Positions 2,773 to 20,554 of a DNA stretch of 64,000 nt are shown here, piece after piece. Position 1 is the first letter of the stretch, and the number at the start of each line of letters is the position of its first letter. Where the stretch lies: NCBI RefSeq assembly GCF_022846255.1, contig NZ_AP025682.1, one strand, 5' to 3'. The DNA comes from Escherichia coli. Lineage in GTDB: Bacteria > Pseudomonadota > Gammaproteobacteria > Enterobacterales > Enterobacteriaceae. The notes beneath the pieces were generated by a model. That model saw only the letters and a list, made by a program, of their open reading frames with translations. It ran no database searches and was not told the origin of the DNA. The position numbers and the translations under genes were made by a program.

Positions 2773-2967
2773 AGACGATATCAGTATCAGCCAAAAAAAT
2801 AGTTTAGCCGTCGATAATAAGCAGTGAAAATAATTTAAAATAATCACATAACGTGTTGTTTATAAAAATAAATATTTCAAAAATGTTTGTTTTTCACGCG
2901 CTTTACAGCCCGAAAAGGCCGGAAGATACTTGCCCGCAACGAAGATTCCTTCATAACCGGGTAAGCA

Positions 2968-5238
2968 ATGATGAAAGTATTAATTGTTGAAAGCGAGTTT
3001 CTCCATCAAGACACCTGGGTCGGTAACGCCGTTGAGCGTCTGGCAGATGCTTTAAGCCAGCAAAATGTTACCGTGATTAAATCCACCTCCTTTGATGATG
3101 GTTTTGCCATTCTCTCTTCAAACGAAGCCATTGACTGCCTGATGTTCAGCTATCAAATGGAACATCCGGACGAACATCAAAACGTCAGACAATTGATCGG
3201 TAAGCTTCATGAGCGCCAACAAAACGTGCCGGTCTTCCTGTTGGGCGATCGGGAAAAAGCCCTCGCCGCAATGGACCGGGATCTGCTGGAGCTTGTCGAT
3301 GAATTCGCCTGGATTCTGGAAGATACTGCCGACTTTATCGCCGGACGCGCCGTTGCCGCGATGACCCGCTACCGCCAGCAGCTGTTGCCGCCACTGTTCA
3401 GCGCGCTGATGAAATATAGCGACATCCATGAATATTCCTGGGCAGCGCCAGGCCACCAGGGCGGCGTTGGTTTTACTAAAACACCCGCCGGACGTTTCTA
3501 CCATGACTACTATGGTGAAAATCTGTTCCGCACCGACATGGGCATCGAACGCACTTCCCTCGGTTCTTTGCTTGACCATACTGGCGCATTTGGCGAAAGC
3601 GAAAAATATGCCGCACGCGTATTTGGTGCCGATCGCTCCTGGTCGGTAGTCGTCGGTACTTCCGGCTCTAACCGCACCATCATGCAGGCTTGCATGACCG
3701 ATAACGATGTCGTGGTCGTTGACCGTAACTGCCATAAATCCATCGAACAAGGCTTGATGCTGACAGGCGCGAAACCGGTCTACATGGTGCCAAGCCGCAA
3801 CCGCTACGGCATTATCGGGCCAATCTATCCGCAGGAAATGCAACCTGAAACCTTGCAGAAGAAAATCAGTGAAAGCCCGCTGACCAAAGACAAAGCCGGG
3901 CAAAAACCGTCTTACTGCGTGGTGACCAACTGCACCTATGACGGCGTGTGTTATAACGCTAGAGAAGCACAGGATCTGCTGGAAAAAACCTCCGATCGTC
4001 TGCACTTTGACGAAGCCTGGTACGGCTATGCACGTTTCAACCCGATCTATGCCGATCACTATGCCATGCGCGGCGAACCTGGCGATCACAACGGTCCTAC
4101 CGTTTTCGCCACCCACTCCACCCACAAACTGCTGAATGCGCTGTCCCAGGCCTCTTATATTCATGTACGTGAAGGTCGTGGGGCGATTAACTTCTCCCGC
4201 TTCAACCAGGCCTACATGATGCATGCCACCACCTCCCCGCTGTATGCCATCTGCGCATCCAACGACGTGGCGGTGTCGATGATGGACGGCAACAGCGGCC
4301 TGTCACTGACCCAGGAAGTGATCGACGAAGCGGTTGATTTCCGTCAGGCGATGGCGCGGCTATATAAAGAGTTCACCGCTGACGGTAGCTGGTTCTTCAA
4401 ACCGTGGAACAAAGAAGTCGTCACCGACCCACAAACCGGCAAAACCTATGACTTTGCTGACGCACCAACCAAACTGCTGACCACCGTTCAGGACTGCTGG
4501 GTCATGCATCCGGGCGAAAGCTGGCACGGCTTCAAAGATATTCCGGATAACTGGAGTATGCTCGACCCAATTAAAGTCAGCATCCTTGCTCCGGGAATGG
4601 GTGAAGATGGTGAACTGGAAGAAACCGGTGTTCCGGCGGCGCTGGTCACTGCCTGGCTTGGTCGCCACGGCATTGTGCCTACCCGCACCACTGACTTCCA
4701 AATTATGTTCCTGTTCTCTATGGGCGTAACCCGTGGGAAATGGGGGACTCTGGTTAACACCCTTTGCTCCTTCAAACGCCACTATGACGCCAACACACCG
4801 CTGGCGCAGGTGATGCCGGAACTTGTTGAACAATATCCTGACACTTACGCGAACATGGGGATTCACGATCTGGGTGACACCATGTTTGCCTGGCTGAAAG
4901 AAAACAACCCTGGCGCACGGTTGAACGAAGCCTATTCCGGCCTGCCGGTGGCGGAAATCACCCCGCGTGAAGCGTACAACGCGATTGTCGACAACAATGT
5001 CGAACTGGTATCCATTGAAAACCTGCCAGGACGCATCGCGGCAAACTCAGTTATCCCGTATCCGCCAGGAATCCCGATGCTGCTGTCTGGTGAAAACTTC
5101 GGCGATAAAAACAGTCCGCAAGTAAGTTATTTACGCTCGCTGCAATCCTGGGACCATCATTTCCCTGGATTTGAACACGAAACAGAAGGGACAGAAATTA
5201 TTGATGGTATTTACCACGTTATGTGTGTGAAAGCGTAA
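2968..5238 (+). CDS. adiA: biodegradative (acid-inducible) arginine decarboxylase
   Basis: ORF track 756 aa; recognised as AdiA (PLP-dependent Orn/Lys/Arg decarboxylase fold); the start may be the second ATG at 2971. Confidence 0.9.
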   Translation: MMKVLIVESEFLHQDTWVGNAVERLADALSQQNVTVIKSTSFDDGFAILSSNEAIDCLMFSYQMEHPDEHQNVRQLIGKLHERQQNVPVFLLGDREKALAAMDRDLLELVDEFAWILEDTADFIAGRAVAAMTRYRQQLLPPLFSALMKYSDIHEYSWAAPGHQGGVGFTKTPAGRFYHDYYGENLFRTDMGIERTSLGSLLDHTGAFGESEKYAARVFGADRSWSVVVGTSGSNRTIMQACMTDNDVVVVDRNCHKSIEQGLMLTGAKPVYMVPSRNRYGIIGPIYPQEMQPETLQKKISESPLTKDKAGQKPSYCVVTNCTYDGVCYNAREAQDLLEKTSDRLHFDEAWYGYARFNPIYADHYAMRGEPGDHNGPTVFATHSTHKLLNALSQASYIHVREGRGAINFSRFNQAYMMHATTSPLYAICASNDVAVSMMDGNSGLSLTQEVIDEAVDFRQAMARLYKEFTADGSWFFKPWNKEVVTDPQTGKTYDFADAPTKLLTTVQDCWVMHPGESWHGFKDIPDNWSMLDPIKVSILAPGMGEDGELEETGVPAALVTAWLGRHGIVPTRTTDFQIMFLFSMGVTRGKWGTLVNTLCSFKRHYDANTPLAQVMPELVEQYPDTYANMGIHDLGDTMFAWLKENNPGARLNEAYSGLPVAEITPREAYNAIVDNNVELVSIENLPGRIAANSVIPYPPGIPMLLSGENFGDKNSPQVSYLRSLQSWDHHFPGFEHETEGTEIIDGIYHVMCVKA

Positions 5239-17105: not shown

Positions 17106-17123
17106 TTGTATTGTGATCGGTAA

Positions 17124-17199
17124 GCCGGATAAGGCGCTCGCGCCGCATCCGGCAACGATGCCGACAGCCTGATGCGACGCTGACCGCGTCTTATCAGGC
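17124..17199. repeat. REP (repetitive extragenic palindrome) pair
   Basis: gccggataaggcgctcgcgccgcatccggc and gcctgatgcgacgctgaccgcgtcttatcaggc; typical REP stem-loops. Confidence 0.75.
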
Positions 17200-17264
17200 T
17201 TCCCTCTCATCTGTATAAATTTCGAACTACACTTAACTGGCTTCTCTTAACTGAGGTCACCATC

Positions 17265-17708
17265 ATGCCGTTAAGTCCCTACCTCTCTTTTGCCGGTAAC
17301 TGTGCCGACGCAATTGCTTATTATCAACGTACGTTGGGCGCTGAACTGCTCTATAAAATCAGCTTCGGCGAAATGCCAAAATCAGCGCAGGACAGCGCCG
17401 AGAACTGCCCTTCCGGAATGCAATTTCCCGATACCGCCATCGCCCACGCCAATGTGCGCATTGCCGGAAGCGATATCATGATGAGCGATGCTATACCGTC
17501 AGGAAAAGCCAGCTACTCCGGCTTTACGCTGGTGCTCGATTCGCAACAGGTCGAAGAAGGAAAACGCTGGTTTGACAACCTTGCCGCTAACGGAAAAATC
17601 GAAATGGCCTGGCAGGAAACTTTCTGGGCGCATGGCTTCGGCAAAGTCACCGATAAATTTGGCGTACCGTGGATGATTAATGTCGTCAAACAACAACCAA
17701 CGCACTAA
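17265..17708 (+). CDS. yjdN: glyoxalase/bleomycin-resistance-fold protein YjdN (PhnB)
   Basis: ORF track 147 aa. Confidence 0.8.
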   Translation: MPLSPYLSFAGNCADAIAYYQRTLGAELLYKISFGEMPKSAQDSAENCPSGMQFPDTAIAHANVRIAGSDIMMSDAIPSGKASYSGFTLVLDSQQVEEGKRWFDNLAANGKIEMAWQETFWAHGFGKVTDKFGVPWMINVVKQQPTH

Positions 17709-17763
17709 CCCGCCGGGAGGGCCGCCCTCCCGCACTGTCATCGAATTCCCGTTAACTCTTCAT

Positions 17764-17796
17764 CTGTTAGTCACTTTTAATTAACCAAATCGTCAC
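17764..17796 (+). promoter_or_regulatory. putative Pho box (PhoB-binding direct repeats) of the phnC promoter
   Basis: ctgttagtcac ttttaattaac caaatcgtcac, 11-nt phased repeats with TGTYA/GTCAC cores about 45 to 75 nt upstream of the phnC ATG; another CTGTCAT at 17735. Confidence 0.5.
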
Positions 17797-17840
17797 AATA
17801 ATCCGCCACGATGGAGCCACTTTTTTAGGGAGGCTGCATC

Positions 17841-18629
17841 ATGCAAACGATTATCCGTGTCGAGAAGCTCGCCAAAACCTTCAATCAGCATCAGGCGCTG
17901 CACGCGGTTGATCTGAACATTCATCACGGTGAAATGGTGGCTCTGCTTGGGCCGTCGGGTTCCGGCAAATCCACCCTTTTACGTCACTTAAGCGGTTTGA
18001 TTACCGGCGATAAATCTGCCGGTAGCCATATCGAGCTGCTGGGCCGCACAGTCCAGCGCGAAGGCCGCCTGGCCCGCGATATCCGCAAAAGCCGCGCCAA
18101 CACCGGCTACATCTTCCAACAATTCAACCTGGTGAATCGCCTGAGCGTACTGGAGAACGTGCTGATTGGCGCGCTCGGCAGCACGCCATTCTGGCGCACC
18201 TGTTTTAGCTACTTCACCCGCGAGCAGAAACAGCGCGCGTTACAGGCGCTGACCCGCGTTGGCATGGTGCACTTTGCCCATCAGCGCGTTTCCACACTCT
18301 CCGGCGGCCAGCAACAGCGTGTGGCGATTGCCCGCGCGCTGATGCAGCAGGCGAAGGTGATTCTGGCCGATGAACCCATCGCCTCGCTGGACCCGGAATC
18401 AGCGCGCATCGTGATGGACACCCTGCGCGACATCAACCAGAACGACGGCATTACCGTGGTCGTCACGCTGCATCAGGTGGATTACGCCCTGCGCTACTGC
18501 GAACGCATCGTCGCCCTGCGCCAGGGGCACGTCTTCTACGACGGCAGCAGCCAACAGTTTGATAACGAACGTTTTGACCATCTCTACCGCAGCATTAACC
18601 GCGTCGAAGAGAACGCGAAAGCTGCCTGA
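17841..18629 (+). CDS. phnC: phosphonate ABC transporter ATP-binding protein
   Basis: ORF track 262 aa; Walker [13 protein letters not shown] signature LSGGQQQR. Confidence 0.9.
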
Positions 18630-19673: not shown

Positions 19674-19759
19674 GTAGGTCGGATAAGACGCCCGGCGTCG
19701 CATCCGACAATGTGCAGACGTTGATGCCGGATGCGGTGCAAGCACCTTATCCGGCCTAC
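19674..19759. repeat. REP pair between phnD and phnE
   Basis: gtaggtcggataagacgcccggcgtcgcatccgaca and gatgccggatgcggtgcaagcaccttatccggcctac. Confidence 0.75.
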
Positions 19760-19774
19760 AGACCGGAGCCAAAC

Positions 19775-20554
19775 ATGCAAACCATCACCATCGCCCCACC
19801 CAAGCGCAGCTGGTTCTCGCTTCTGAGCTGGGCCGTTGTTATCGCCGTGCTGGTCGTCTCGTGGCAGGGCGCGGAAATGGCCCCGCTTACGCTGATTAAA
19901 GATGGCGGCAACATGGCGACGTTCGCCGCCGACTTCTTCCCGCCCGATTTCAGCCAGTGGCAGGATTACCTCACCGAAATGGCCGTCACGCTGCAAATCG
20001 CCGTCTGGGGCACCGCGCTGGCGGTGGTTCTCTCCATCCCCTTCGGCCTGATGAGCGCTGAAAACCTGGTACCGTGGTGGGTCTACCAACCTGTACGCCG
20101 CCTGATGGACGCCTGCCGCGCCATTAACGAAATGGTCTTCGCCATGCTGTTCGTGGTCGCCGTCGGCCTCGGCCCGTTCGCTGGCGTGCTGGCGCTGTTT
20201 ATCCACACCACCGGCGTACTTTCCAAACTGCTTTCCGAAGCGGTAGAAGCGATTGAACCCGGCCCGGTGGAGGGCATTCGCGCCACTGGTGCCAACAAGC
20301 TGGAAGAGATCCTCTACGGCGTACTACCGCAGGTCATGCCGCTGCTGATTTCCTACTCTCTCTATCGCTTCGAATCCAACGTCCGCTCGGCGACCGTCGT
20401 CGGTATGGTTGGCGCGGGCGGAATTGGCGTCACGCTGTGGGAAGCGATTCGCGGTTTCCAGTTCCAGCAAACCTGCGCCCTGATGGTGCTCATCATCGTC
20501 ACGGTCAGCCTGCTGGATTTCCTCTCTCAACGGTTGCGTAAGCACTTTATCTGA
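19775..20554 (+). CDS. phnE: phosphonate ABC transporter permease (intact reading frame)
   Basis: ORF track 19712..20554 starts inside the REP; ATG 19775 with SD GGAG gives 259 aa (MQTITIAPP...); no frameshift. Confidence 0.85.

Follow-up and report, generated by a model that had tools for sequence, protein, structure and literature searches.

Between yjdN and phnC of Escherichia coli, directly after the stop codon of the one gene and directly before the Pho boxes of the other, lies a short GC-rich hairpin that is not followed by a run of T residues. Does this hairpin belong to the transcript that ends there, to the promoter that begins there, or to neither of the two? Here we follow up this question for a stretch of 64,000 nucleotides of E. 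coli (NCBI RefSeq assembly GCF_022846255.1, contig NZ_AP025682.1), called the window below; all positions refer to the window, read 5' to 3'.

The hairpin and its surroundings in E. coli

The region 17560-17900 is 100% identical to E. coli 2017.09.02CC. Of 5,413 matching genomes, nearly all show 95-99% identity to it, and in their annotation the genes flanking the hairpin are yjdN and phnC. The features of the region are collected in Table 1.

Table 1. Features of the yjdN-phnC region and its upstream REP unit, in window coordinates
Feature	Position	Strand	Basis or remark
REP unit (Rfam naRNA4) between yjdM and yjdN	17123..17200	+	85.5 bits, E 2.6e-15; only real Rfam match nearby
yjdN CDS	17265..17708	+	147 aa, VOC-family metalloprotein; ORF list and RefSeq annotation of identical or near-identical E. 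coli records
yjdN stop codon TAA	17706-17708	+	Sequence
Hairpin 5' arm CGGGAGGG	17714..17721	+	Sequence, fold, inverted-repeat finder
Polymorphic loop-closing position of the hairpin	17721	+	Alignments, haplotype counts
Hairpin loop CCG	17722..17724	+	Fold
Hairpin 3' arm CCCTCCCG	17725..17732	+	Sequence, fold
C-rich, G-poor untranslated tract, candidate rut region on read-through RNA	17733..17812	+	C 29%, G 10%; doubles as the phnC Pho-box array; rut function putative
CTGTCAT, putative Pho half-site (perfect)	17735..17741	+	First of six heptamers and 3' limit of the hairpin slot; near-invariant across genera
PhoB-bound motif ATTAACCAAATCGTCACA of the phnC promoter	17780..17797	+	Fitzgerald et al. 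2023 (PMC10294691), Table 1, matched to the window
phnC, first gene of the Pho-regulated phosphonate operon	17841..18629	+	ORF list, annotation; ATG at 17841

The hairpin (17714-17732) starts 5 nt past the yjdN TAA and ends 2 nt short of CTGTCAT, and the repeat finder recovers the same palindrome at these positions. Its 19-mer has a minimum free energy (MFE) of -14.7 kcal/mol, and 3 of 200 shuffles are equally stable. The MFE helix contains one extra G-C pair and thereby ends at 17733, the next 8 nt being ACTGTCAT. No T-run is present 3' of the hairpin, the terminator scan makes no plus-strand call at the site, the Rfam scan yields no family matching the hairpin, and the RefSeq records examined carry no annotation for it. 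A study of 2026 on REP325, an element of the same operon, leaves the hairpin unmentioned, and no discussion of it was found in the literature searched.

The preliminary description of the locus had reported an 8-bp hairpin without T-run between the yjdN stop and a putative Pho box, and sequence, fold, repeat finder and terminator scan all agree with it. The stem length of 8 bp holds for the window strain and fails for E. coli generally, as ~89% of genomes have a stem of 7 bp with a 5-nt loop. The difference is located at 17721, which is G in the window (giving the 8th pair and a 3-nt loop) and C in K-12 (giving the 7-bp stem and the loop CCCGC); the K-12-type allele is the one found in the ~89%, and G is the minority allele. 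The exact K-12 44-mer is present in 4,808 E. coli records and two G-allele haplotypes are found exactly in 296 and 6 records. A 44-mer containing the hairpin occurs at a median of one place per genome, in a search whose 28-base word would miss isolated 19-nt copies. In E. coli A32 (L078, aligned to window ~17684-17716) a deletion of ~20 bp takes away the yjdN stop together with the start of the 5' arm, and the annotated yjdN frame runs on through the remaining 6-bp hairpin.

Taken by itself, the window sequence does not set the hairpin beyond chance. There are 37 clusters of 26-nt hairpins of -14 kcal/mol or lower on the plus strand of the 64-kb window, mostly intragenic, and the 33-nt segment that begins right after the stop codon and includes the whole half-site exceeds its dinucleotide shuffles in stability by only 1.85 sd (z -1.85). 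The core GGGAGG-N3-7-CCTCCC occurs in one copy in the window against 0.02 expected.

Two minus-strand features overlap the hairpin. The only nearby terminator call is a weak 6-bp stem on the minus strand (17716-17697), antisense to the end of yjdN, and was rejected as a candidate; no gene is present that would need a terminator there. An 80-codon minus-strand ORF (17499-17741) would start at the complement of the CAT in CTGTCAT; the turnover of stem sequences described below argues against a coding constraint from this frame.

Conservation across the Enterobacteriaceae

Orthologous loci were collected with a YjdN protein scan using one genome per species, which resulted in 69 loci, mostly from Enterobacteriaceae; Yokenella and Buttiauxella were added via PhnC homologues. 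Unless stated otherwise, the comparison concerns the 56 loci that have a REP-free short spacer and retain the half-site (the window, K-12 and 54 others, from ~20 named genera).

A stable hairpin lies between the yjdN stop and the CTGTCAT half-site in 56/56 of these loci. MFE values range from -11.1 to -23.8 kcal/mol with a mean of -17.1, and the mean z against dinucleotide shuffles is -3.45 (55 of the 56 loci folded). The stems measure 7-13 bp and start 1-9 nt past the stop codon, and their 3' ends range from 2 nt short of CTGTCAT to 6 nt within it. A hairpin is maintained at this position, while at least eight distinct stem sequences are found (Table 2).

Table 2. Stem types at the yjdN-phnC position
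Lineage	5' arm	3' arm
Escherichia, Citrobacter, Salmonella arizonae/diarizonae, Kluyvera, Pseudocitrobacter (type A)	CGGGAGG	CCTCCCG
Enterobacter	GGCGGtGGGC	GCC(C/T)CCGCC
Lelliottia V86_10, RIT714	GGCGGAGG	CCTCCGCC
Leclercia, Silvania hatchlandensis	GACGGCGGGCG	CGCCTGCCTGTC
Klebsiella, Pluralibacter	CAGGGCGG	CCGCCCTG
Trabulsiella	GCCTTCCCG	CGGGAAGGC
Trabulsiella odontotermitis strain 01	TGACGGGCAGGC	GCCTGTCCGTCA
Yokenella	GACGGGCC	GGCCCGTC

When the 5' half of one stem type is combined with the 3' half of another, the resulting chimeras fold at a mean of -11.4 kcal/mol against -17.1 for the native hairpins (a cost of 5.7), and 7.7% of them reach the native mean stability. The effect of the half-swap is moderate; in most types the 5' arm is rich in G and the 3' arm rich in C.

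Within the type-A group (32 sequences from five named genera) the 14 arm columns have a majority base in 99%, against 61% for the loop and 56% for the 5' flank, which indicates strong purifying selection on both arms. The distance from arm to arm varies from 4 to 6 nt, which fits a loop rather than a rigid site for a dimeric protein. The 7-bp core is essentially invariant without double changes, variation being confined to the outer and loop-closing pairs, and the covariation score does not clearly stand out from shuffled alignments (50/500 reach it). Hence, within the group, the evidence consists of conservation and not of covariation. For all types together (55 sequences), MAFFT with RNAalifold gives no consensus structure and no pairs, because the stems of the different types are out of register. 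Folds, half-swaps and arm conservation together show that the hairpin structure is under selection across the Enterobacteriaceae; covariation between types has to be read as a structure-anchored comparison in which column homology is ambiguous.

Most type-A stems are perfect palindromes and therefore uninformative about the strand on which the structure acts. Large energy gaps favour the plus strand in ~10 (a few independent lineages) and the minus strand in 2-3, so that G-U pairs and the fold energies of both strands lean weakly to the plus strand.

The hairpin follows the 3' end of yjdN

Natural variants of the locus bear on which neighbour the hairpin belongs to. Buttiauxella warmboldiae has a homologous promoter (CTGTCCT ... 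ACTCTTCAT ... TTAAC ... CGTCAC), yet its upstream neighbour is a divergent yjdM and yjdN is absent; no hairpin is found beside the distal heptamer (z -0.27). The reverse situation is seen in E. coli SCPM-O-B-8794 (L006 1818-1860) and E. whittamii (L007 2945-2995), where the phn operon has been lost by a deletion that starts inside the CTGTCAT heptamer and the hairpin after yjdN is intact. In Klebsiella, Pluralibacter and Trabulsiella, finally, phnF and not phnC is the first gene after the promoter, and both hairpin and promoter are still present.

In seven loci of Lelliottia, Enterobacter and Silvania the slot holds a doublet of palindromic units instead (-26 to -44 kcal/mol). Fuzzy matching finds these units again between yjdM and yjdN and between phnD and phnE in many loci, which identifies them as REP elements; Rfam recognises none of the Enterobacter and Lelliottia units. 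Given these four kinds of variants (Buttiauxella, phn loss, phnF and REP), the hairpin belongs to the 3' end of an upstream gene read in the same direction, and it is interchangeable with REPs.

The same loci display further variation. In a second type of phn loss the deletion starts near codon 144 of yjdN and extends into phnN/phnO (seen in E. coli R32_14_1F, Escherichia sp. E1V33 and MOD1-EC7003; L005 1636-1716, L008 and L070 ~2930-2990). Losses of the phn operon are recurrent and independent, with two kinds of left end-point. In Trabulsiella, Pluralibacter and relatives (L053, L055, L057, L062-L064 and L074; ~2935-3200) the Pho-box promoter is followed by phnF, which encodes a GntR-type regulator, and not by phnCDE; some of these loci have extra repeat-rich insertions between promoter and phnF. 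In Escherichia albertii NBRC 107761 (L009 2945-2982) ~94 bp are deleted and the yjdN-phnC spacer is 38 nt long; the hairpin and all six Pho heptamers are gone, the -10/leader CCACGATGGAGCC is kept, and CCGCC-like repeats border the corresponding segment in E. coli. Here phnC would be transcriptionally fused to yjdN and lack PhoB sites.

Published expression data

A REP325 deletion in K-12 raises yjdN ~10-fold (log2FC +3.37, padj 1.8e-10) and leaves phnC without significant change (+0.65 +/- 0.55, p 0.23) in the RNA-seq table of a recent preprint (bioRxiv 10.64898/2026.03.23.713779), with a baseMean of 12 for phnC and 176 for yjdN. From these published K-12 data the RNA signal per nucleotide drops ~26-fold across the 132-nt yjdN-phnC intergenic region. 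The endogenous yjdM-yjdN transcript of the deletion strain forms a discrete band of operon length, while yjdN is very weakly expressed in wild-type K-12 (10.64898/2026.03.23.713779). Under phosphate limitation, phnC RNA drops from 32,470 in the wild type to 13 when phoB is deleted (Fitzgerald et al. 2023, PMC10294691), with columns assigned from the text of that paper. It has thus been shown by others that there is little or no read-through from yjdN to phnC in K-12 RNA, which places insulation somewhere between the two genes and does not single out hairpin or Rho. The published Term-seq supplements that were searched contain no entry for yjdN and no nearby coordinate.

The REP325 element itself, located between yjdM and yjdN, is described as a stabiliser and a partial Rho-dependent terminator, and the bicyclomycin Northern blots of the preprint concern REP325 only (10.64898/2026.03.23.713779). 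By analogy, the REP unit of the window may be regarded as an upstream attenuator and stabiliser of the same operon, functionally similar to the hairpin. Copy number of REP325 varies strongly between E. coli strains, since the yjdM-yjdN intergenic region of the window (17106-17264) spans 159 bp with a single naRNA4-sized unit against 657 bp in K-12 MG1655 (yjdM end at 548, yjdN start at 1206 in L001); the K-12 element is described with 12 hairpins (10.64898/2026.03.23.713779).

A probable stem-loop at the end of the yjdM-yjdN transcript

On balance we favour, by a modest degree, an explanation in which transcripts of yjdM-yjdN end in this hairpin as a 3'-terminal stem-loop, of the class that lacks a U-tract and is linked to Rho, which would both stabilise the yjdN message and insulate the phn promoter. 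Dar and Sorek (2018, PMC6061677) described Rho-dependent E. coli transcripts which end in stable stem-loops without uridine tracts, have C over G downstream and are trimmed back to the stem-loop by PNPase/RNase II; a later preprint extended conserved 3' stem-loops to both modes of termination. The hairpin resembles this class in being a stable GC-rich stem-loop past a stop codon, without uridine-rich tail and with C over G downstream, its stem and energy being in the range of intrinsic terminators. It differs in that the C-rich tract is at the same time the activator-binding array of the next promoter, and its membership is a classification by sequence-level criteria.

The tract downstream of the hairpin has the composition expected of a rut region. 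In the 78-nt window 17720-17797 the C/G ratio is 2.6, which exceeds the 99th percentile of the 64-kb window, and in the orthologues the 80 nt past the stem contain 33% C and 13% G (median C/G 2.6). This skew would be equally expected from the orientation of the Pho heptamers alone and so does not count independently towards a rut site. Translation from the phnC ribosome-binding site, only ~95 nt downstream, could limit the access of Rho.

In the favoured explanation, ribosomes would leave at the yjdN stop codon, after which the nascent RNA would form the GC-rich hairpin. Rho would load on the next ~80 nt, which are untranslated, C-rich, G-poor and weakly structured, and would presumably terminate transcription in the phnC promoter/leader or the early phnC region; termination after yjdN is most likely Rho-dependent. 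PNPase and RNase II would then trim the RNA from 3' to 5' up to the base of the hairpin, where they are expected to be blocked. As an outcome, the yjdN mRNA would receive a defined and protected 3' end (at a presumed exact position), while yjdMN transcription would be kept off the PhoB sites and the phn genes would stay unexpressed from upstream at plentiful phosphate. The hairpin may also contribute weakly and directly to termination. The preliminary description had offered two roles, insulation of the phnC promoter or RNA stability. Both are consistent with the selected structure, the tie to the end of yjdN, the interchange with REPs, the K-12 RNA-seq and the near-zero phnC RNA of the phoB deletion strain, and a causal role of the hairpin itself in them is presumed.

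A direct role in termination could also be a larger one: the hairpin may act as a weak or atypical intrinsic terminator or as a pause site, perhaps aided by NusA/NusG. We consider this rather unlikely as the main function, and it could coexist with the Rho model. Like canonical intrinsic terminators the element is GC-rich, of terminator-like size and energy, and placed 1-9 nt past the stop of a co-directional gene; the sharp drop in RNA from yjdN to phnC in K-12 fits as well, and Dar and Sorek (PMC6061677) noted that hairpins with reduced U content may be inefficient intrinsic terminators with Rho as backup. What it lacks, in every orthologue examined, is the defining U-tract (a run of about 7-8 U): the 8 nt past the stem contain 1-4 T with a mean of 2.75 (56/56 orthologues), and the consensus terminator scan is silent at the site on the plus strand. 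That no lineage has evolved a U-tract might be explained, among other reasons, by the Pho half-site which occupies those bases.

Given the interchange described above, REP elements are the other obvious comparison. Both are extragenic palindromes after a stop codon without poly-U, they occur in the same operon, and in the seven Lelliottia, Enterobacter and Silvania loci REP doublets take the identical position. In contrast to REPs, the hairpin is single-copy, measures 19 nt, matches neither the REP consensus nor naRNA4, and is not dispersed.

The hairpin and the Pho-box array

Downstream of the hairpin, six heptamers follow at an exact spacing of 11 bp (17735-17800), in the order CTGTCAT (17735), TTCCCGT (17746), TCTTCAT (17757), TAGTCAC (17768), AATTAAC (17779) and TCGTCAC (17790), an arrangement which suggests three tandem Pho boxes. 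The motif of the ChIP-seq study covers the proximal heptamer pair only; the distal perfect heptamer is the one best conserved across genera. The hairpin is an inverted repeat and thereby differs from a Pho box, which consists of two direct 7-bp CTGTCAT-like repeats 11 bp apart. A direct repeat of another kind (AGTCACTTTT at 17769-17778 and AGCCACTTTT at 17815-17824, 46 bp apart) has one copy inside heptamer four of the Pho array and its second copy where the phnC leader is predicted to start, and is probably due to chance.

Since the spacer between stop codon and heptamer is only 24-29 nt long, with room for just one hairpin, simple compaction explains why the hairpin is adjacent to the Pho half-site. 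In Leclercia, Klebsiella, Yokenella and Trabulsiella the 3' arm takes in bases of the heptamer, which suggests a pressure to retain a stem in a slot that would be unable to grow.

The close packing of both elements allows a more specific proposal, which we put forward tentatively and with clearly less confidence than the explanation favoured above: hairpin and Pho-box array may form one compact insulator of dual use. The heptamer strand, when transcribed from upstream, would be the rut site that recruits Rho, and the hairpin would mark and protect the end of the upstream transcript. The main reason for keeping the hairpin against the half-site would then be protection of the activator sites from transcriptional interference, and not stabilisation of the yjdN mRNA.

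The adjacency could also point to an element that acts as DNA rather than RNA, either a palindromic site for a dimeric regulator or an architectural (cruciform) part of the phn promoter. In favour of this, the hairpin touches the distal Pho half-site or extends into it in every genus, with stem ends anywhere from 2 nt short of CTGTCAT to 6 nt within it; all 32 type-A sequences, from five named genera, share the same core, and perfect palindromes read alike on both strands. Against this, the arms differ wholly between genera with complementarity retained, the spacing of the type-A arms varies from 4 to 6 nt, and plus-strand G-U pairs are tolerated in several lineages. Moreover, the homologous promoter of Buttiauxella has no palindrome, the palindrome outlives the loss of the promoter in two Escherichia genomes, and REP elements are able to replace it, which altogether makes a role at the level of DNA improbable.

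A complementarity between the E. coli 3' arm (CCCUCCC) and the phnC ribosome-binding site (AGGGAGG) was considered as a possible anti-Shine-Dalgarno element; the two do not co-vary across genera. Kluyvera combines the type-A hairpin with ribosome-binding sites GAAGGGG or TGAGGGT, and in Enterobacter and Leclercia the match to the arm is partial or absent. On these sequences the complementarity was rejected as a probable coincidence between G-rich sequences.

Least probable of all is that the hairpin has no function and is a chance GC-rich palindrome or the decayed remnant of a REP or mobile element in a short spacer, as might be argued from the 37 comparable hairpins on one strand of the window, the segment z of -1.85 and the natural variants in which it is missing (the E. 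albertii deletion) or partly deleted (E. coli A32), because a stable hairpin persists in 56/56 REP-free loci of ~20 named genera through turnover of its stem (z about -3.5), the arms are 99% conserved against 56-61% in adjacent columns, and the element is unlike REPs, with the naRNA4 model matching 17123-17200 only and the core single-copy in the window.

Significance

Summarizing, the hairpin is real and evolutionarily maintained, though ordinary; it is most likely an element of transcript end formation and insulation, and it leaves the understanding of termination or Pho regulation unchanged. For E. coli it offers a concrete and testable dividing line between yjdMN, a constitutive unit, and the 14-gene phn operon, which is under tight Pho control. 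According to the published model, the copy number of REP325 should alter the transcription that reaches yjdN and the hairpin. Further downstream, the ORF at the phnE position of the window (19712-20554) is uninterrupted, with 280 codons from a GTG. In K-12, phnE is cryptic due to an 8-bp insertion, and the window strain may therefore have a functional phosphonate transporter.

Across the family, the locus represents a natural experiment in which a slot of ~25 nt carries one of at least eight different hairpins or else REPs, and is empty where there is no co-directional upstream gene. This comparison lends support to the general idea that REPs and 3' stem-loops without a U-tract can stand in for one another as transcript-end modules.
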